Assembly (NCBI RefSeq): GCF_056712565.1
Contig: NZ_CM160072.1
DNA: 64,000 bases
Direction: 5' to 3' (one strand)
Position 1 is the stretch's first letter. Every line of letters starts with the position of its first letter. Under the pieces are notes generated by a model. The model worked only from the letters and a program-made list of their open reading frames with translations, was not told the origin of the DNA and ran no database searches. A program made the position numbers and the translations under genes. Below, piece by piece: positions 2,543 to 46,560 of the stretch.

Positions 2543-3916
2543 ATGGATGCTAACAATATGAAAAGAAAAATTATTCCCGTGCTAATCGGTTGTACGCTCT
2601 CTTTCTCTGCCCTGGCGGCACAACCTACGGCTGAGCGCTATGTCGTCAGTTTTCCAGAAGGCACGCACGTGAACTACGCCGGCGCATTTGCCAGTGCATT
2701 CCCGAACGGCCTTCCGGTTGGGATAGGTTCTGGCCTGCTGTTCACCGGTAAACAGGGCGATGCCCTGACATTCGCAACCATTACCGATCGCGGTCCGAAC
2801 GCGGATTCACCGAAAGAGGGGAAAAACGAAACTAAAATTTTCGTTACGCCAGATTTCGCGCCGCTGCTGATGACGATTCGTGTACAAAACGGCAAAGCGG
2901 AGGCCATCGATCCCCGTCCTCTGCATGACGATAAAGGCGCGATCAACGGTCTGCCGCTGGCAAGCGACGTGATTGGCTCCACCAATGAAGTGGCCTTCAG
3001 CGACACGTTACATAGACTGAAGGGGGATAATCGCGGGCTGGATACGGAAGGGATCACTCCGGATGGTAAAGGAGGTTACTGGCTGTGCGATGAGTATGGC
3101 CCGTTCCTGATTAACATCGACAGTAAAGGGAAAATCCTGGCAATCCACGGTCCGCAGGCGGCGGAAGGGGAAAAAGCGATTGCGGGCGGTTTGCCAAATA
3201 TCCTCAAATGGCGTCAGGCGAACCGCGGCTTTGAAGGCCTCACCCGTATGCCGGACGGGCGTATTATTGTCGCCGTGCAAAGTACGCTGGATATCGACGC
3301 TAAGAGCAAGAAAAAGGCGCTGTTTACGCGTCTGGTGAGCTTCGATCCGGCAAGCGGAAAAACCGCGATGTACGGTTATCCTATCGACAGCGCGGCCTAC
3401 AGCAAAAACAGCGACGCTAAAATCGGAGACATCGTGGCGCTCGATAACCAGCACATCCTGCTGATCGAACAGGGAAGAGATAAAAACAACAGAATGCGTA
3501 ACCTGATTTACGAGGTCGATCTCAATAAGGCGAGCGACCTGTCAGGCTTCGACAAGCCGGGTGAGTATCCGGAGTTTGATGATGAGAAAACCCTGTCACA
3601 GCGCGGCATTACCCTTGCGCAGAAAACGCAGGTTGTTGATCTGCGCTCCTTGGGCTGGCAGCAGGAGAAGGCTGAAGGGTTGGCGCTGATCGACAGCAAA
3701 ACGCTGGCGGTGGCGAACGATAACGACTTTGGCGTGAAGGTGGCGATGCAACATCCGGTCGAGGGCAAGACATTCAAGGATTATCGGGTGAACGCGGAAG
3801 GAAAGCTGACGCTTGACGACAAGCAGGTTGAAACGACCCTCAGAGTGAAGCCACTGGAGAAACCGGAGTCTGACAGTGAACTGTGGATTGTGACGCTGCC
3901 GGAAGCGTTGAAATAA
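2543..3916 (+). CDS. Exported phytase-like / esterase-like beta-propeller family protein (signal peptide; alternative start at 2558)
   Basis: 457-aa ORF; N-terminal MKRKIIPVLIGCTLSFSALAA signal peptide; motifs DRGPN, GFEGLTRMPDG, NDNDFG reminiscent of phytase-like esterase domain proteins. Confidence 0.6.
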   Translation: MDANNMKRKIIPVLIGCTLSFSALAAQPTAERYVVSFPEGTHVNYAGAFASAFPNGLPVGIGSGLLFTGKQGDALTFATITDRGPNADSPKEGKNETKIFVTPDFAPLLMTIRVQNGKAEAIDPRPLHDDKGAINGLPLASDVIGSTNEVAFSDTLHRLKGDNRGLDTEGITPDGKGGYWLCDEYGPFLINIDSKGKILAIHGPQAAEGEKAIAGGLPNILKWRQANRGFEGLTRMPDGRIIVAVQSTLDIDAKSKKKALFTRLVSFDPASGKTAMYGYPIDSAAYSKNSDAKIGDIVALDNQHILLIEQGRDKNNRMRNLIYEVDLNKASDLSGFDKPGEYPEFDDEKTLSQRGITLAQKTQVVDLRSLGWQQEKAEGLALIDSKTLAVANDNDFGVKVAMQHPVEGKTFKDYRVNAEGKLTLDDKQVETTLRVKPLEKPESDSELWIVTLPEALK

Positions 3917-4119
3917 GTTTATAAGGTACGGACAGCAGTATCGCTTAGTTTTTCAAATTCATGTATGTGAACAATATTGGGGTTCCGGCGTAGACCCCCA
4001 ATGAAAGCGTCACCACGTGAAAACATGCCTGCACGGTTTACACGTCATCTCATGGTGGCAGCCGGTTAACTTTCCTGCTACACCAGTGGAAAAAGGCCAT
4101 AAGCAGTCCGAACAAAAGT

Positions 4120-8241: not shown

Positions 8242-9401
8242 ATCAATATGAGGTAAAATTTTTTGTTGATTTAATGGTTAAATAATAACCACAGTGTATT
8301 TTGCTGCTGAAGAAAGACAAAATGAATCTGTGTGTCCCCTCCTTCCCTTCGGAGCACATCCACTATTCAAATTTTACACAACCACGTACGAACAAAAAGC
8401 ATCATCCCGGGTATTGCAGATACCGGTTTCCTGCCGGGAAGAATCATAAACAGAACACCGGGAATAACGCCTTCAGGAATCACCCCCCCTCCTGAAGAAG
8501 AATAAAATAAAGAAGACTACAGTTCCTGCACTGAATGCTGAGTACAATATTTTATGGACAGGATGACATTTTTATAAATAACAAAAACCATTTAATACTG
8601 ATACATCAATAAAATACTTCTTCCCTGCTGACACAGATAAAATGCACCATTTTTTCTTCAAATACTTCTGTATAATCGCCAGCCAATGATGAGAATGGAT
8701 TAAAATAACACTTCTTCGACAAACACAAAAACAGCCTTCATTTTACATCATCATCCAGTTTCAGTTAACCCCGGACGAGCGACAGTGTTTCAGTACAGGA
8801 ATTAAAAGCCAGCTTTTGCTCAGTAAAACACACTCAACTAATAATATCTCAGCAGATATTATCCTGACCAGGACACCTCACATTACTGAATTCTCTTCCG
8901 ACAGTATCACTGCACAAATAAAAAGAACGGGATAAATATTCAGACCGGAAGAATGGTGTCACAAAAGCATTTAATCATTACGCATGACCAGGAAGGGAAA
9001 CACTTAACCACATGGTATCAACAGATATCATTACGTGTGCACTCTTATAAAAAACACACAGAAGAAGTAAGATAATTATAAACGTAAATTTAATATCTCC
9101 CACTGACATCTCCCCCACAATACACTAAAAAATACTCACAGCAGTAAACACAGATACACCTGATAATCATACAGCCGATAAATATTTTCCCCTTTACGGA
9201 GAAATCAGCCTGCTGTTTAACAATAACGGCGTATTTTCATGGAAGGAGATCACCCAGTAACGGATAAGTCCTGATCTCCTTCATGTTAATACGCAACAAT
9301 CCCATCGATTCAAAACAATTTCAGACAGATATTATCTCCGTGAATCCCCCGCCACCTTTCCGGTGCGCGGGGTTTTGTCTTTTTTCACCGGGAATACATG
9401 T

Positions 9402-40541: not shown

Positions 40542-41648
40542 TTAGTTTTGTACTGTGACTTTATTATCCTTCACAGTGATCAAAACTGAATCCGTCACCG
40601 CTTTGCCGCCTGCAGTTTCACCGCCAATAATCAATAGACTATTATTCCAGGGCAATGATACTCCGTAGGCCCGACCTTGCGATAATTCACCCGATTTATC
40701 CCATTTCCCGTTATGCCAAAGATGAATATCAGTGCTATATGATTTTTTCAGGCCTTCATGCGCATAGTTCTTACCGTTCTGGTAATTTTCTCGTGAACCT
40801 TTGAATCCGGCCCCTCCGGCAAATATAAGAGAATCATTGCTTATCCCCGCAAAACCGCCAGCTACGCCATCTGGTGATGAGACGGGAGCAAGCTTATTCC
40901 ATTTTAAATTATTACCGGTGAAATCAAGTTCAAATACGGCATCCGTTCGCAATCCTGGTTTGGCTTCGCCATTAATAAGCCAGGTTTTATCACCTTTATT
41001 CACAACCGCCGCACCAGCCGTTCCGTACCAGGGCGATTCGCCAGCGTAACTCCATTGCTGTGTTGAGGGATCAAAAGACAACAGAAACTTATTGAAGAAA
41101 TAATCTTCTGCTTTTTTGTCAAAATAGTGAGCATTGATTTTATCTATAGCGGTTGAATCTTTTCCAGCCTCGTTGAGATCTTCAAAATAGCCATTGAAGA
41201 TATTCTGGTTAACACCACCAGTAACATAAGCCTTGCCGTTGTGTACAAAAGTCACATGGCCCGCCATGCCCATCGGCGCGTGCGACATCAATTTAACCCA
41301 ACTATTGGTTTTGGGGTTGTATTTGTGTACGTCATTAAATACCTGAGTCAAGCCCTCGCTGTTTTTGCCAATGCCGCCAAACACATACAGATTGCCATCA
41401 ATAAATGCAGAGGTTGCTTGATCTCTTGGTCCGCCAGGGAATGCAGCTAACGCTGTCCATTTTTTATCTTTGGCCTGTGTATCCAGCTTGTACCATGCCG
41501 TACCTGCGCTACCTAAACCAATGTAGACAGTGTCGTTATCAATTGCTCCGGTACCACTTTTAAATGGCACAGGAGTTTCCGGTAATACAGATGCGTTTGC
41601 GGCAAATGAAGCCATCATGATAGCAAGCGCCGTTATTGTTTTATTCAT
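40542..41648 (-). CDS. nanM: N-acetylneuraminate epimerase (Kelch-repeat mutarotase)
   Basis: Start MNKTITALAIMMASFAANA (signal peptide); Kelch-type beta-propeller repeats. Confidence 0.85.
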   Translation of the reverse strand: MNKTITALAIMMASFAANASVLPETPVPFKSGTGAIDNDTVYIGLGSAGTAWYKLDTQAKDKKWTALAAFPGGPRDQATSAFIDGNLYVFGGIGKNSEGLTQVFNDVHKYNPKTNSWVKLMSHAPMGMAGHVTFVHNGKAYVTGGVNQNIFNGYFEDLNEAGKDSTAIDKINAHYFDKKAEDYFFNKFLLSFDPSTQQWSYAGESPWYGTAGAAVVNKGDKTWLINGEAKPGLRTDAVFELDFTGNNLKWNKLAPVSSPDGVAGGFAGISNDSLIFAGGAGFKGSRENYQNGKNYAHEGLKKSYSTDIHLWHNGKWDKSGELSQGRAYGVSLPWNNSLLIIGGETAGGKAVTDSVLITVKDNKVTVQN

Positions 41649-41667
41649 TGTGACTGTCTCCTGTCTA

Positions 41668-42384
41668 CTACAGTTTAAATGACACACCAATGCGATAACT
41701 GTTTTCCGATAAATTATCTCTGCCGTTGTAAACACCCTGACGGTCAAGGTAGTCATATTCTATGTATGGCGTAATATCGGGCGTCATATGGTATTGTAGA
41801 ACAAATGCATTTTCCGTCGCCCATTTCTTATGGTTTGCATAGCGATAATCGTTCTGTTTGCTGTATAGCGTCGTTTGCCATGCGAAGGTGAAATCACTAT
41901 TAATATGGTAAGTGACATATCCATCCCAACGATGAACGTTATCACGAGACATATCACCGGATAAGTCTTGTTGTCGGTAAGCTTTCCAGTCGTAACGATA
42001 GCGAATGCCAAAATTAAGATCTTTTGTCGCGTCCCAGGACAGTTTTACGTAGGGTCCGTAGCGTGTGCCGTTGCTGCTAAAATGCGTTAACATTCCCGGG
42101 CGCACCGTCCATTGATCATCAAGTTTAATCGCGTAATTAACTTCAACCTGAACATCATTGAGTGCGGCATTTTCCTTTTTATTATCATGAATGGTATTCC
42201 AGGTATTACTTTCCATGCTTGCCCACCATCCATTTTGCCATCCCTCACTGACTTTGAGTCGAGTCTCATAGGCGTGGCTTCCACTACGATATCCACCACG
42301 TACGTCCAGTGTCGCAGCCTGAGAAATTAATGGGGACGAAAAGCACAGTAATAATACGCCAGAAAGTATTTTAGCCTTTTTCAT
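41668..42384 (-). CDS. nanC: KdgM-family outer-membrane N-acetylneuraminic acid channel
   Basis: Start MKKAKILSGVLLLCFSSPLISQA; beta-barrel porin. Confidence 0.85.
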   Translation of the reverse strand: MKKAKILSGVLLLCFSSPLISQAATLDVRGGYRSGSHAYETRLKVSEGWQNGWWASMESNTWNTIHDNKKENAALNDVQVEVNYAIKLDDQWTVRPGMLTHFSSNGTRYGPYVKLSWDATKDLNFGIRYRYDWKAYRQQDLSGDMSRDNVHRWDGYVTYHINSDFTFAWQTTLYSKQNDYRYANHKKWATENAFVLQYHMTPDITPYIEYDYLDRQGVYNGRDNLSENSYRIGVSFKL

Positions 42385-43839
42385 AAATTTCACTCATTTG
42401 TAGGATACAGAAAGCAATACAAAGCCCGCATAAACAATTAGCATTTATGTTGTGTAATATTTTTTTGCCAGGCTTATAGTGTCTTTGGCAACCGGTAGCT
42501 GTATTTTATATTTTTTTGTATAAGGTCTCCTGTGAAAAATCTCTTTTCACATTATTTAAATAAACAGAGAACCAGATTAAATACCTGAGTATAAAATCTC
42601 TTCTGATGTTTAATTGATTTGAATGTTCGTAAGCTATATCACTTACTCAATCCATTTTACCCAGAGTCATAAAATAGAATGTCTGTTGATCTCATTTTCA
42701 TATTCCTTTCAGACTGAAGTGCGTTTTCATCACCCGATGAGAAAGAACTGAAGTGATGTTTGCCATAGATTGCGAGATGCCCTGTCTCATTGACTATCTT
42801 GGTGCACCTTTATACCTGTTATACCAGATCAAAAATCACGCAATCCATACAACAAAACCAGATTTGCAATTCGTGTCACAAAATATGTCGATCTTTTTCT
42901 AAGAGGAAGATGCCATGTGAAGCCAGACGAACACTTGCGGTGGTCTTCAAAAACTAAAGATCTTAGTTTAACTATTTGTTTTATAAATAATTTGTTTAGA
43001 GTCTAAACAAGGGGAGCTTTGCAAGCTAACTCAGTGAGCTTGGTGAAAATCAGTGTTTACCCGCCATCAGGCTGAGCATAATTCTCATCATGAAATATGT
43101 TTCCTGGTTTGTGGCTTGTAACTGGTCACTTCTGAAGTCGATCTGGAGAGGCTTGTTGATGTTGGTGTTTTCAGGATGATGTTTCACTTAGTTTGTTTGC
43201 CGTATCGCCCGGCGAATGGCTGTGATTGAGGAAGGTTTAAGTCGTAGTGACCAAAGCTATATTTACCAACGAATGTAGATGAAAAAATCATCTCCTGCGT
43301 TCCCCCATATCTCCAGGATAAAAAGGAATGTAACAATCTCATGGCGTAAGCTGACGAATCAGCAGGAATAATCGCTAGGGACCTAAGAATTAGCATGATA
43401 ATAGCCACTAAGAAATTACTGCGCTCCATGAAATAGCCATTTTGTGGCAAATGGAGTTGACTAATAATGTCATATGTGAGACGGCTAGTTGAACGAATAT
43501 TAAATTTTGCTGAATTTTTTATGTTGATTTTACTTGTTACAGAACATATCACATGATATATAGATAAGATTAGTTGCATTAATGATGAGGGTTATTATTA
43601 GATTCGTATCCGATTGATAAATATATAAAGGTACATAGCATGCAAGAGCATGGCGTTTGTATGGCAACGTTATTATAATTAACAGTTGCTACTCCATTTA
43701 AGTTCACTCAGAAGAACTGGTCCACTTACGTTAGTTATTAAGCAAACGTTCGCTTTTATAAACATAATCAGGATAAAAATGTTGGATTATTGCTAACCCA
43801 GCACAGCTAGTGCGCGTCTGTAATTATAAGGGAAAAACG

Positions 43840-44442
43840 ATGAAGAATAAGGCTGATAACAAAAAAAGGAACTTCCTGACCCATAGTGAAATCGAATCAC
43901 TCCTTAAAGCAGCAAATACCGGGCCTCATGCAGCACGTAATTATTGTCTGACTTTGCTTTGTTTTATTCATGGTTTCCGGGCGAGTGAAATTTGTCGATT
44001 GAGGATTTCGGATATTGATCTTAAGGCAAAGTGTATATATATCCATCGATTAAAAAAAGGCTTTTCAACAACGCACCCGCTATTGAATAAAGAAGTTCAG
44101 GCTTTAAAAAACTGGTTGAGTATCCGTACTTCGTACCCGCATGCTGAGAGCGAGTGGGTATTTTTATCACGTAAGGGGAATCCGCTTTCTCGGCAACAGT
44201 TTTACCATATTATCTCGACTTCCGGTGGTAATGCCGGGTTGTCACTGGAGATTCATCCGCACATGTTACGCCATTCGTGTGGTTTTGCTTTGGCGAATAT
44301 GGGAATAGATACGCGACTTATCCAGGATTATCTTGGGCATCGCAATATTCGTCATACTGTCTGGTATACCGCCAGCAATGCAGGGCGTTTTTACGGCATC
44401 TGGGATAGAGCCAGAGGACGACAGCGTCACGCTGTTTTATAG
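43840..44442 (+). CDS. fimB: Type 1 fimbriae tyrosine recombinase FimB (bidirectional switching)
   Basis: 200-aa product MKNKADNKKRNFLTHSEIESLL...; tyrosine recombinase motifs (…HMLRHSCGF…LGHRNIRHTVWYT). Confidence 0.95.
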   Translation: MKNKADNKKRNFLTHSEIESLLKAANTGPHAARNYCLTLLCFIHGFRASEICRLRISDIDLKAKCIYIHRLKKGFSTTHPLLNKEVQALKNWLSIRTSYPHAESEWVFLSRKGNPLSRQQFYHIISTSGGNAGLSLEIHPHMLRHSCGFALANMGIDTRLIQDYLGHRNIRHTVWYTASNAGRFYGIWDRARGRQRHAVL

Positions 44443-44919
44443 AGATAGTTGAGATACCAGGGATGGTGTTAAAAACTACATTATTCTTACGATATATCAA
44501 AAATGATTAACCATTTATTAATTGATGTTATTGTAAGTGTGATTCTTAATTATCATAATAAACATTAAGTTAACCATATCCATACAAAATACAATGGTTT
44601 ATGTTCTTCAAAATAAATAAACAAAATCATTCATAAATTTACACATCACTTAAAATCTCCTGTTTCCGCACTTTTTTCTTTATTTTTTAAGCAACTGGAA
44701 GTTAATCCACTGCAATCTATTGTTATATTGAATCAAATCAATGAAAATAGATGTTGTCACATCAGTGATATTTTATTTTTGTATGATATTTAATGTAATT
44801 GACTGATAGCCACATCACTCCGTGTGTGGTTATCTTTTTATCTATTGGGCTAATTTTGACCGATTGAGGTTTCCTATAGGTATTCATTCAAATATATCTC
44901 AGTTAGGAGTACTACTATT

Positions 44920-45516
44920 GTGAGTAAACGTCGTTATCTTACCGGTAAAGAAGTTCAGGCCATGATGCAGGCGGTTTGTTACGGGGCAACGGGAGCCAGA
45001 GATTATTGTCTTATTCTGTTGGCATATCGGCATGGGATGCGTATTAGTGAACTGCTTGATCTGCATTATCAGGACCTTGACCTTAATGAAGGTAGAATAA
45101 ATATTCGCCGACTGAAGAACGGATTTTCTACCGTTCACCCGTTACGTTTTGATGAGCGTGAAGCCGTGGAACGCTGGACCCAGGAACGTGCTAACTGGAA
45201 AGGCGCTGACCGGACTGACGCTATATTTATTTCTCGCCGCGGGAGTCGGCTTTCTCGCCAGCAGGCCTATCGCATTATTCGCGATGCCGGTATTGAAGCT
45301 GGAACCGTAACGCAGACTCATCCTCATATGTTAAGGCATGCTTGCGGTTATGAATTGGCGGAGCGTGGTGCAGATACTCGTTTAATTCAGGATTATCTCG
45401 GGCATCGAAATATTCGCCATACTGTGCGTTATACCGCCAGTAATGCTGCTCGTTTTGCCGGATTATGGGAAAGAAATAATCTCATAAACGAAAAATTAAA
45501 AAGAGAAGAGGTTTGA
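44920..45516 (+). CDS. fimE: Type 1 fimbriae tyrosine recombinase FimE (ON-to-OFF switching), GTG start
   Basis: 198-aa product MSKRRYLTGKEVQAMMQAV... Confidence 0.95.
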   Translation: MSKRRYLTGKEVQAMMQAVCYGATGARDYCLILLAYRHGMRISELLDLHYQDLDLNEGRINIRRLKNGFSTVHPLRFDEREAVERWTQERANWKGADRTDAIFISRRGSRLSRQQAYRIIRDAGIEAGTVTQTHPHMLRHACGYELAERGADTRLIQDYLGHRNIRHTVRYTASNAARFAGLWERNNLINEKLKREEV

Positions 45517-45565
45517 TTTAACTTATTGATAATAAAGTTAAAAAAAACAAATAAATACAAGACAA

Positions 45566-45892
45566 TTGGGGCCAAACTGTCCATATCATAAATAAGTTAC
45601 GACAAACTTTTTCAGTTTATTTGTTGGCTTAATATTCTATTGTTATCTTTATTTATAGATGTTTATATTGCATGAGGTGGTTTTTGGAGAGAAGAATGAG
45701 GAAGATGCGTCGAGCCACAGAAACGCATCTTCCTCATTCTTAGCTTTACATATAGCGGAGGTGATGTGAAATTAATTTACAATAGAAATAATTTACATAT
45801 CAAACAGTTAGATGCTTTTTGTCGTTTTTTAATATTTTTATGCTTGAGAAAAAATACGTAACTTATTTATGATATGGACAGTTTGGCCCCAA
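45566..45892 (+). promoter_or_regulatory. fimS invertible promoter element, oriented with the fimA promoter pointing at fimA (phase ON); bounded here by perfect 36-bp inverted repeats
   Basis: TTGGGGCCA at 45566-45574 and TGGCCCCAA at 45884-45892; -35 TTGAGA (45844-45849) and -10 TATGAT (45868-45873) read toward fimA; identity extends to TTGGGGCCAAACTGTCCATATCATAAATAAGTTACG (45566-45601) versus its exact reverse complement (45857-45892). Confidence 0.85.
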
Positions 45893-46011
45893 ATGTTTCA
45901 TCTTTTGGGGGAAAACTGTGCAGTGTTGGCAGTCAAACTCGTTGACAAAACAAAGTGTACAGAACGACTGCCCATGTCGATTTAGAAATAGTTTTTTGAA
46001 AGGAAAGCAGC

Positions 46012-46560
46012 ATGAAAATTAAAACTCTGGCAATCGTTGTTCTGTCGGCTCTGTCCCTCAGTTCTACAGTGGCTCTGGCCGCTGCCACGACGGTTAATGG
46101 TGGGACCGTTCACTTTAAAGGGGAAGTTGTTAACGCCGCTTGCGCAGTTGATGCAGGCTCTGTTGATCAAACCGTTCAGTTAGGACAGGTTCGTACCGCA
46201 TCGCTGGCACAGGAAGGAGCAACCAGTTCTGCTGTCGGTTTTAACATTCAGCTGAATGATTGCGATACCAATGTTGCATCTAAAGCCGCTGTTGCCTTTT
46301 TAGGTACGGCGATTGATGCGGGTCATACCAACGTTCTGGCTCTGCAGAGTTCAGCTGCGGGTAGCGCAACAAACGTTGGTGTGCAGATCCTGGACAGAAC
46401 GGGTGCTGCGCTGACGCTGGATGGTGCGACATTTAGTTCAGAAACAACCCTGAATAACGGAACCAATACCATTCCGTTCCAGGCGCGTTATTTTGCAACC
46501 GGGGCCGCAACCCCGGGTGCTGCTAATGCGGATGCGACCTTCAAGGTTCAGTATCAATAA
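46012..46560 (+). CDS. fimA: Type 1 fimbrial major subunit
   Basis: 182 aa, signal peptide, pilin fold, ...FKVQYQ C-terminus. Confidence 0.95.

Follow-up and report, generated by a model that had tools for sequence, protein, structure and literature searches.

The 1455-bp segment between nanC and fimB in the 64,000-nucleotide stretch of DNA analysed here (the window; NCBI RefSeq assembly GCF_056712565.1, contig NZ_CM160072.1) is almost certainly the E. coli nanC-fimB intergenic control region, in a near-K-12 allele and with three functional parts. The spacer is real, intact and already known, hence not a new system, and the long gene-free gap that it leaves between the two genes is neither an assembly gap nor an annotation gap. 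We established the identity of the locus, the sequences and spacing of its operators and their selective conservation by direct comparison with published sites, with K-12 and with other strains. The frequency with which E. coli switches on its type 1 fimbriae is set by the amount of FimB, and the fimbriae themselves are of major importance in colonisation and in urinary-tract virulence. The spacer converts host sialic acid and GlcNAc, signals of inflammation and mucus turnover, into lower fimB expression; with the module intact, this strain should regulate fimB like K-12.

Boundaries and composition of the nanC-fimB spacer

The identities of the flanking genes were taken from the RefSeq annotation of matching genomes and, for FimB, FimE and NanM, from NCBIfam. 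The locus is laid out as follows.

41668-42384, minus strand: nanC, N-acetylneuraminic acid outer-membrane channel, left edge of the spacer (RefSeq annotation of identical or matching genomes)
42385-43839: nanC-fimB divergent intergenic control region, 1455 bp, 36.2% GC
43840-44442, plus strand: fimB, tyrosine-type DNA invertase, right edge of the spacer (NCBIfam NF007370, E = 2e-138, and RefSeq annotation)

The GC content of the spacer compares with 49.3% for the whole window and 43% for nanC and fimB, and its local minima reach about 30%. Its length is exceptional for the neighbourhood, since the next largest gene-free gap in the annotated, collinear 50 kb of MG1655 is only ~565 bp. The long AT-rich divergent region that the first-pass annotation had described between nanC and fimB was thus borne out, with one correction: its start had been placed at 42394 because an in-frame GTG at 42393 precedes the annotated nanC ATG at 42384, and it lies at 42385, a 9-bp shift of no consequence for the region itself. 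That annotation had also made its reading depend on conservation of the spacer or its operator motifs. Of 5426 complete E. coli genomes, 5109 contain the spacer (4699 at 80% coverage or more), and the operators described below are kept in the 12 strains compared.

No gene or RNA is annotated within the spacer in MG1655 or in 13 other RefSeq genomes. An Rfam search of 41500-46500 at permissive E-values gave no match in the spacer and just two chance-level microRNA-like matches, on a hairpin in fimS. As a separate observation, the fim switch in the window carries two palindrome-perfecting changes that are found in none of the 5426 complete genomes. The fimS sequence at 45540-45920 also shows a 27-nt end replacement and a 14-15-nt insertion, either of which may be an assembly artefact. 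Pfam searches of eight shorter spacer ORFs returned no matches and so lent no support to decayed-gene remnants, a repeat search of the spacer yielded just two 12-nt pairs, at chance level, and a generic promoter and terminator scan gave fewer matches than in shuffles. PMC10395866 and PMC7858067 contain nothing specific on the nanC-fimB spacer.

NanR and NagC operators lie at their published sequences and spacing

A motif scan for NanR repeats and NagC sites, proposed by the first-pass annotation, recovered the NanR tandem and exact copies of both published NagC operators. These sites and the elements around them are listed below; L017 denotes a divergent Escherichia locus used for comparison.

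42811-42825, minus strand: O_NR, NanR operator GGTATA-ACA-GGTATA (GGTATAACAGGTATA), tandem repeat match
42807-42802, minus strand: degenerate third NanR repeat AAG-GGTGCA, extending O_NR to 42802-42825
42823-42818, minus strand: hexamer of the putative nanC promoter, extended -10 TGgTATAAC, overlapping the NanR operator
42385-42811, minus strand: putative nanC leader, about 427 nt, from sequence and nanX paralogy
42827-42830: GATC (Dam) site adjoining O_NR, kept in 12/12 strains and in L017
42865-42887, plus strand: O_NC1, NagC operator (TGCAATTCGTGTCACAAAATATG), exact match to "fimB1" of PMC3098098 Table 1
Centred about -61.5 from the putative nanC start: candidate CRP-like site TGCAA-N6-TCACA, overlapping O_NC1
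42890-42893: GATC (Dam) site beside O_NC1, kept in 11/12 strains, GATA in L010 and L017
42969-42981 (minus strand) and 42982-42994 (plus strand): two adjoining candidate IHF-like cores, each one mismatch from WATCAANNNNTTR
43077-43099, plus strand: O_NC2, NagC operator (CATAATTCTCATCATGAAATATG), exact match to "fimB2" of PMC3098098 Table 1

The tandem GGTATA-N3-GGTATA occurs only once in the 64 kb, at O_NR, where the two exact repeats are joined in register by GGTGCA (4/6). Single GGTATA hexamers occur in the window at about chance frequency (24 observed vs 19.9 expected), and therefore the tandem arrangement alone is diagnostic. According to PMC8012715, NanR operators consist of direct GGTATA repeats 3 nt apart, of which the canonical operator has three, and a genomic SELEX peak places NanR at the nanC/fimB spacer (PMC5934670). 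On the nanC side, the promoter, a transcription start near 42811 and the leader are predicted from the sequence and from paralogy to the region upstream of nanX (yjhB), which is 64% identical over about 290 bp.

The two NagC operators are 212 bp apart, start to start. The second operator reportedly lies 212 bp nearer fimB in the work of Sohanpal in 2007. We scored both with an independent NagC matrix, trained on 8 non-fim sites with the fim sites excluded. O_NC2 was the best match in the 64 kb: its 20.35 bits fall within the 17.0-23.6 of the training sites and lie above the maximum of every shuffle, 20 of the window and 500 of the spacer. O_NC1 scored just 12.1 bits on this matrix, rank 6 and within chance. 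Relative to the derived fimB transcription start at 43569, O_NR to O_NC1 span -758 to -682 and the operators as a whole -758 to -470, in agreement with the distances in PMC3173223, where regulatory sites are located around 760 and 470 bp upstream of that start. The claim that this spacer is a NanR/NagC control region for sialic acid and GlcNAc, which the first-pass annotation had put forward, is supported.

Dam sites had been named there as well, and GATC at 42827 and 42890 indeed adjoin O_NR and O_NC1. Since the 5 GATC sites in the spacer match the chance expectation of 4.8, only the placement and conservation of the Dam sites are informative. A role for Dam at these operators is given, with reference to Sohanpal 2004, in PMC11316696. 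The IHF-like cores sit at 42982, the midpoint of the NagC operators, and are one-mismatch matches within the stretch of the spacer that varies most; positions 42969-42994 are thus candidate sites read from consensus cores. They may correspond to the IHF site that Sohanpal in 2007 reportedly placed midway between the NagC operators.

SlyA sites, promoter and leader of fimB

The fimB side of the spacer contains the following elements.

43375-43386, plus strand: O_SA2, SlyA operator (CTAGGGACCTAA), exact match to the PMC3173223 sequence
43390-43401, plus strand: O_SA1, SlyA operator (TTAGCATGATAA), exact match to the PMC3173223 sequence
43534-43569, plus strand: fimB sigma-70 promoter, with probable -35 TTGTTA (43534-43539), probable TG-extended -10 TATATA (43557-43562) and derived start 43569
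43569-43839, plus strand: fimB 5' untranslated leader, 271 nt (PMC3911127), near-invariant in strains
About 43794-43831, plus strand: MicA target in the fimB leader, with UGCGCGUCU at 43811-43819 (PMC3911127)

The start at 43569 was derived by arithmetic from published distances: the SlyA positions, reported at -194 to -167 of the fimB start (PMC3173223), and the 271-bp leader (PMC3911127) both give this coordinate. The -35 and -10 hexamers are our own reading of the sequence; the published fimB promoter escaped the generic promoter scan, which requires a final T that the -10 TATATA lacks. The SlyA operators (43375-43401) overlap H-NS sites, and PMC3173223 reports H-NS binding between about -500 and +150 relative to the fimB start.

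Operators are conserved islands within a fast-evolving spacer

Comparison with K-12, also proposed by the first-pass annotation, aligned 1455 of 1455 positions to MG1655 with 4 substitutions, none inside an operator (window/K-12: 42571 A/T, 42994 G/A, 42997 T/A and 43314 C/T); two of the four, 42994 and 42997, fall in the segment with the IHF-like cores. Across 12 strains the spacer length is nearly constant, at 1452-1465 bp, and the spacer has 12.0 variable columns per 100 bp, compared with 3.2 in nanC and 6.0 in fimB. Footprinting in these strains marked the operator module and the fimB promoter as cold spots of variation: O_NR and O_NC1 are invariant, and 43500-43599 contains no variable column. 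One and the same search detected the 96-bp operator module in 5089 genomes, with at least 99% identity in 3367, and a piece of equal length 100 bp away in only 1448. In L017, where the spacer as a whole is 78% identical, O_NR keeps 15/15 bases, O_NC1 22/23, O_NC2 21/23, the SlyA operators 12/12 and the fimB promoter 35/36. The operators are therefore conserved islands within a fast-evolving spacer.

The remainder of the spacer evolves unevenly. Its nanC-proximal 400 bp are better conserved in L017 (82-92%) than its centre, and the segment at about 42940-43350 is the most variable, with a pairwise diversity of 0.075-0.078, 12-bp and 1-bp indels and just 42-74% identity in L017, O_NC2 excepted. 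These data bear on a different account of the spacer, which accepts the operators as real and treats the exceptional length as functionless, the product of back-to-back long-leader promoters and fast-evolving filler placed between the NagC/IHF module and the SlyA sites. The diversity of the central segment exceeds even the synonymous diversity of nanC (0.028) and fimB (0.048), IS1 insertions are tolerated within the spacer in sequenced isolates, and the two leaders (271 nt published and about 427 nt predicted) would take up ~700 of the 1455 bp. Sohanpal in 2007 reportedly found the sequences downstream of O_NC2 dispensable, and activation stronger when the operators were moved closer, as this account would have it. 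On the other side stand the near-constant length of the spacer and the reach of H-NS noted above, for which an extended AT-rich tract may be needed in silencing. Likewise, in Klebsiella, Raoultella, Citrobacter, Enterobacter, Shimwellia and others, where nanC is absent, fimB is preceded by 0.4-1.7 kb of DNA that is poor in ORFs and lower in GC, which suggests, by this crude measure, that long upstream DNA is a general property of fimB. A functionless length is thus possible, although we rather doubt it.

We also considered that the central third (about 42940-43350), which holds the IHF-like cores together with the stretch separating the NagC loop from the SlyA/H-NS sites, is a lineage-specific tuning element rather than neutral filler. 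Its excess diversity and indels would then change the geometry of looping or the silencing by H-NS, so that E. coli lineages would differ in basal fimB level and in the rate of ON switching. We regard this as improbable.

A short ORF in the putative nanC leader

The conservation of the nanC-proximal 400 bp would also fit an unannotated small RNA or leader peptide in the spacer that helps control nanC or fimB. The one candidate is listed below.

42695-42657, minus strand: 12-codon ORF (MRSTDILFYDSG) in the putative nanC leader, with AGGA 9 nt upstream

Its start, length and stop are kept in 12/12 strains and in L017, and a short ORF occupies the same place in the paralogous nanX leader. However, the peptide sequence is altered in L017 (MRSTNNPFYDTG), the nanC transcription start on which the leader depends is itself a prediction, and Rfam contributed no family match. 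Neither leader folds better than its shuffles: z = -0.33 for the putative nanC leader and z = -0.15 for the fimB leader, which has no exceptional predicted structure; there is therefore no sign of a structured element. The MG1655 annotation includes many sRNAs and small proteins nearby, such as ythB, ykiE, fimR2 and ryjB, and nothing in the spacer. We consider an additional RNA or peptide regulator very unlikely, and a regulatory leader peptide common to nanC and nanX a minor possibility.

The 131-codon ORF is very probably not a gene

43184-43579, minus strand: 131-codon ORF, antisense to the fimB promoter region, judged non-coding

This ORF exists as the first-pass annotation had described it, AT-rich, 131 aa long and the longest in the spacer. 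If it were a real gene, the spacer would be two shorter intergenic regions. Three observations might be taken that way: only ~1% of spacers simulated with a Markov-1 model at this composition contain an ORF of such length, 7/12 strains keep a reading frame of 131-135 codons that begins at the same ATG, and the exact protein has been called automatically as "hypothetical protein" on at least 1000 contigs. The length is mildly unexpected, without being evidence of a gene. In K-12 MG1655 the ORF stops after 88 codons, with TAG at codon 89, and it reaches 131 codons here because one substitution in the window removes that stop; it ends after 73 aa in O157:H7 and after 105 aa in three strains. Among the length-keeping strains the middle third is read in another frame, and therefore the protein sequence is not conserved. 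The pN/pS ratios, which rest on few sites, are 0.39 in codons 1-72 and 3.55 in the C-terminal part; nanC and fimB have values of 0.02-0.03 (0.03 for nanC across 11 strains), and off-frame controls 0.3-2.8. Conservation of its 5' part is explained by the overlap with the SlyA/H-NS sites and the fimB promoter. No Shine-Dalgarno motif precedes the ATG, the promoter scan gave no minus-strand promoter-like site for the ORF, Pfam and NCBIfam gave no match, and the ORF is unannotated both by PGAP and in MG1655. With its truncations and frameshifts among strains, the absence of purifying selection and the lack of a family match, the earlier judgement that it is probably not coding is supported; a real gene here is barely credible, and the ORF should not be annotated as one.

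A model for control of nanC and fimB by amino sugars

The nanC-fimB spacer as a control region can be summarised in a model for which protein binding and the direction of regulation are taken from the literature. On the nanC side, a putative promoter overlapped by the NanR operator would be followed by a long leader. The distal activating module, 470-760 bp upstream of the fimB start, comprises the NanR operator, the two NagC operators and the two Dam sites, and the pair of NagC operators, 212 bp apart, probably loops the DNA around an IHF bend. On the fimB side, the promoter lies in AT-rich DNA bound by H-NS, where two SlyA sites counter silencing, and is followed by the 271-nt leader on which the small RNA MicA acts. 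Without amino sugars, NanR and NagC would occupy the module, so that nanC is repressed and fimB transcription raised. Sialic acid would inactivate NanR and GlcNAc-6-P would inactivate NagC, upon which nanCMS would be induced and fimB would fall; as fimB falls, fewer cells would switch type 1 fimbriae ON.

Comparison with known systems

The corresponding region of K-12 MG1655 (NC_000913.3, 4539502-4540956), studied by the Blomfield and Plumbridge groups, has the same flanking genes, orientation and length of 1455 bp. The operators for NanR, NagC (two) and SlyA (two), the GATC sites, the promoter region and the MicA target are identical; MG1655 differs from the window by the four substitutions given above, one of them restoring the stop of the 88-codon ORF.

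Outside Escherichia, Klebsiella, Raoultella, Citrobacter, Enterobacter and Shimwellia share the fimB-fimE-fimA synteny, with FimB 80-88% identical, and their fimB genes also have a long ORF-poor, lower-GC upstream stretch. These loci differ in that nanC and nanM are absent next door. Comparison of the spacer by blastn with 21 fimB loci of other genera gave no matches, and no double GGTATA repeat and no NagC match of 14 bits or more was present within 5 kb on either side of fimB in these loci. From this absence of nanC, operators and spacer similarity, the sugar-sensing module looks Escherichia-specific.

Its components have close relatives elsewhere in E. coli. The NanR operators of nanATEK-yhcH and nanXY/yjhBC likewise consist of GGTATA repeats spaced by 3 nt over a -10 region. 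The paralogy between the nanX and nanC upstream regions includes 53 bp at 90.6% identity and takes in the GATC and the CRP-like site; the nanX copy has three GGTATA repeats, whereas the nanC copy has two exact repeats and the degenerate GGTGCA. According to PMC3173223, the NanR bound at nanC also activates the divergent fimB gene from a distance.

The NagC looping systems nagE-nagBACD, chb and glmU likewise use two 23-bp operators acting together, and O_NC2 scores within the range of their sites on the matrix built from them. Cooperative two-site NagC binding at fimB is cited in PMC5401889. Unlike the looping repressors, the NagC pair of fimB lies 470-700 bp upstream of the promoter and activates (PMC3173223), and it additionally represses the adjacent nanC.

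Features and conservation of the nanC-fimB spacer

In the window, nanS-nanM-nanC are encoded on the minus strand, fimB-fimE-fimA on the plus strand, and the divergent region is bounded by annotation as follows:

41668-42384, minus strand: nanC
42385-43839: nanC-fimB spacer, 1,455 bp
43840-44442, plus strand: fimB

The first-pass annotation had described an AT-rich divergent region of about 1.4 kb at 42394-43839, and the spacer indeed has a GC content of 36.2%, compared to 49.3% for the window and 43% each for nanC and fimB. Its end stood as described, while its start moves, trivially, to 42385 with the annotated nanC ATG, the earlier position having come from an in-frame GTG at 42393, upstream of that ATG. 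In MG1655, the annotated K-12 reference, no other gene-free gap exceeds about 565 bp over the collinear 50 kb, which makes the length of the spacer exceptional for its neighbourhood.

By megablast, 42300-43900 was matched in 5,109 of the 5,426 complete E. coli genomes, 4,699 of them with at least 80% coverage, and the matches were invariably annotated as nanC | fimB. Compared to the nanC-fimB region of MG1655, the spacer is conserved at the same length, with 1,455/1,455 positions aligned without gaps and four substitutions (42571, 42994, 42997, and 43314). No annotated gene or RNA lies within it in MG1655 and 13 other RefSeq genomes, except for an IS1 in one isolate.

NanR, NagC, Dam, and IHF-like sites

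Scanning for NanR GGTATA repeats and NagC sites revealed the tandem NanR site and both NagC sites given for fimB in PMC3098098, accompanied by Dam and IHF-like sequences:

42811-42825, minus strand: NanR site GGTATA-ACA-GGTATA, single occurrence in 64 kb
42827: GATC (Dam), directly adjoining the NanR site
42865-42887: NagC site "fimB1" (O_NC1), exact match to PMC3098098, one occurrence
42890: GATC (Dam), directly adjoining the first NagC site
43077-43099: NagC site "fimB2" (O_NC2), exact match to PMC3098098, one occurrence
42969-42994: two IHF-like cores, one mismatch each, straddling 42982, the midpoint of both NagC sites

In register after the NanR tandem repeat comes GGTGCA, a degenerate copy of the hexamer. 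Since the lone GGTATA hexamer is not enriched across the window, only the tandem arrangement counts. The overall number of GATC in the spacer is at chance level. The two NagC operators are 212 bp apart, and IHF reportedly binds "midway" between them (Sohanpal 2007).

The whole window was scored with a NagC matrix trained on eight non-fim NagC sites, the fim sites being excluded. O_NC2 gave the top score of the window, 20.35 bits (training sites, 17.0-23.6), higher than any score in 20 shuffled versions of the window and 500 of the spacer. O_NC1 scored 12.1 bits (rank 6), which alone is indistinguishable from chance; this low score fits a weak site that would depend on cooperation with O_NC2. 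Further matches at 1466-1488 (17.45 bits) and 9071-9093 (16.2 bits) are near shuffle level, the shuffled maximum being 17.15.

Promoters, leaders, and the control of fimB

On the fimB side, two further operators were located:

43375-43386 and 43390-43401: SlyA operators, exact matches to the sequences from PMC3173223

The fimB start was placed at 43569 because the SlyA distances (-194 to -167 of the start; PMC3173223) and the 271-bp fimB leader (PMC3911127) both give this position. Relative to it, the stretch with the NanR and NagC operators runs from -758 to -470, in agreement with "around 760 and 470 bp" in PMC3173223. Upstream of the start, the promoter reads TTGTTA, a 17-nt spacer, and a TG-extended TATATA. 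A MicA target is reported at -46 to -9, about 43794-43831, in the fimB leader, and UGCGCGUCU at 43811-43819, inside this target, is presumably complementary to the 5' region of MicA.

On the nanC side, the extended -10 of the promoter, TGgTATAAC (42826-42818), probably lies inside the NanR operator, and we infer from the sequence a CRP-like site that overlaps O_NC1 and is centred at about -61.5. If this promoter holds, the nanC leader would be about 427 nt, so that transcribed leaders would occupy about 700 of the 1,455 bp, with about 750 bp between the two starts. The putative nanC leader contains a short reading frame:

42657-42695, minus strand: 12-codon ORF MRSTDILFYDSG, with AGGA 9 nt upstream

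This ORF begins and ends at the same codons and has the same length in 12/12 E. coli strains and in L017, a divergent Escherichia locus (MRSTNNPFYDTG), and it is without annotation in MG1655.

The published account is best supported (PMC3173223, PMC5401889, PMC5934670, PMC11316696, PMC3911127), in which occupation of the distal module by NanR and NagC would keep nanC repressed and increase the transcription of fimB. Neu5Ac would relieve NanR and GlcNAc-6-P would relieve NagC, so that host-released amino sugars would induce nanCMS and lower fimB, and type 1 fimbriae would then be switched ON in fewer cells. H-NS silencing at the fimB promoter would be countered by SlyA, and the fimB leader would be where MicA acts. 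The spacer is an already known feature, correctly observed in the first-pass annotation; the reading given there, that it integrates sialic acid and GlcNAc signals via NanR and NagC, is supported by published operators that are present exactly and conserved.

Conservation of the operators within a variable spacer

The window was aligned with 11 other E. coli strains picked across the identity range.

Variation across the locus in the strain alignment (variable columns per 100 bp; pairwise diversity)
nanC: 3.2; 0.007
Spacer: 12.0; 0.034
fimB: 6.0; 0.009

Diversity in the centre of the spacer reached 0.075-0.078, more than nanC (0.028) and fimB (0.048) show at synonymous sites. In a hot spot at 42940-43350, as many as 22 columns vary within 50 bp, and there are one 12-bp indel and 1-bp indels. 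The NanR site, O_NC1, O_NC2, the first GATC, and the MicA target were invariant or nearly so in the alignment, as was the 100-bp stretch enclosing the fimB promoter. The same difference is seen across the species: the 96-bp operator module was found in 5,089 genomes, with at least 99% identity in 3,367, compared to only 1,448 genomes for a hot-spot piece of equal length.

L017 turned up when one genome per species was scanned with FimB. Its identity to the window is 96.4% in nanC and 94.9% in fimB but only 77.9% in the spacer, falling to 42-74% in the central segment 42940-43350. Even so, 15/15 bases are kept in the NanR site, 22/23 in NagC1, 21/23 in NagC2, 12/12 in SlyA1, and 35/36 in the promoter. 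Altogether, the operators are kept across strains and L017, and conserved sites in a variable spacer are the footprint that functional operators would be expected to leave.

A 131-codon ORF opposite the fimB promoter

The spacer also holds a longer reading frame:

43184-43579, minus strand: 131-codon ORF

On the strand opposite to fimB, this ORF starts 10 nt into the fimB leader and extends back across the promoter and the sites of SlyA and H-NS. The 43314 substitution of MG1655 creates a TAG at codon 89, leaving 88 aa; the ORF has 73 aa in O157:H7 and 105 aa in three other strains, and strains with 131-135 codons have the middle third in another frame (a 1-bp indel plus compensation). Over codons 1-72 its pN/pS was 0.39, and in the C-terminal part it reached 3.55, compared to 0.03 for nanC and 0.02 for fimB, and off-frame control values overlap those of the ORF. 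The sequence has no Shine-Dalgarno motif for the ORF, Pfam and NCBIfam searches of its product gave no match, and a promoter scan gave no minus-strand promoter-like site. On all these grounds we reject it as a gene, in agreement with its earlier description as probably not coding. An ORF of such length occurred in about 1% of composition-matched simulations. Automatic callers label it "hypothetical protein" on many contigs, which explains why it is conspicuous and is no evidence of function.

The fim switch, the rest of the window, and insertions at related loci

Outside the spacer, the following features were noted:

1-804: IS1
805-22123: island with agn43, mtnK/mtnA, and other genes, in place of the MG1655 fec-nanXY region
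45566-45892: fimS, the invertible fim switch, between fimE and fimA

The window is collinear with MG1655 over 22124-45601. Several natural isolates match the island at 100% identity, and since it replaces fec-nanXY, the third NanR-controlled operon (nanXY) is absent from the window. The orientation of fimS is opposite to that in the MG1655 reference, and the fimA promoter (TTGAGA...TATGAT) is directed at fimA, i.e., phase ON. AH19D088 is the nearest natural relative whose switch is oriented as here. Measured against it, the 28 nt that lie internal to the left inverted repeat have given way to the 27 nt that usually occupy this place in the other orientation, so that both ends carry an identical 36-bp perfect inverted repeat; in addition, an insertion of 14-15 nt, CATCTTCCTCATTC[T], near 45727-45741 yields a perfect hairpin whose stem measures about 18-19 bp. 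Neither of these two was seen among the 5,426 complete E. coli genomes, and the odd fimS looks like a chimeric consensus of a mixed ON/OFF population or the result of template-switch mutations. The residual novelty is in such side issues, namely this switch, the central diversity excess, and the conserved 12-codon ORF of the putative nanC leader.

Insertion sequences turned up repeatedly among the loci compared. IS1 lies within the spacer near the SlyA sites in L014. In L013 and a genome match, H29, fimB has been lost together with most of fim through an IS1-bounded deletion whose breakpoint, about window 43576, adjoins the fimB start. In the EcN record (L004), fimB is broken by an ISEc53-family element. 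E. coli fimB at 100% amino-acid identity was found on contig CAUHML010000277.1 of a "Bacteroides" metagenome-assembled genome (L016) and on a 449-bp contig of a Jiangella anatolica assembly (L038), probably as contamination of those assemblies.

Comparison with fimB loci of other genera and with nanX

We compared 20 fimB loci (L018-L037) from Klebsiella, Raoultella, Citrobacter, Enterobacter, Shimwellia, Samsonia, and Yersinia, covering 5 kb on either side of fimB. They share the fimB-fimE-fimA order with E. coli, and a long tract of ORF-poor, lower-GC DNA, 0.4-1.7 kb, also precedes fimB in these genera, by the crude measure of the nearest ORF of at least 120 aa. At all 20 loci, nanC/nanM nearby, DNA similarity to the E. 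coli spacer, and, within the 5-kb flanks, a double GGTATA repeat or a NagC match of at least 14 bits were absent; judging by these absences, the sugar-sensing module appears to be confined to Escherichia.

The putative nanC promoter-leader block is paralogous to the region upstream of nanX (yjhB): identity is 90.6% across 53 bp and 64% across about 290 bp. The paralogous stretches, window 42650-42900 and 3800-4100 of the nanX upstream locus (L040), cover the nanC promoter, operator, and early leader. Common to both regions are a GATC and a CRP-like site, their register unchanged. GGTATA repeats number three in the nanX copy, all intact, and two plus GGTGCA in the nanC copy; the nanX leader carries a 9-codon ORF where the 12-codon ORF of the putative nanC leader aligns.
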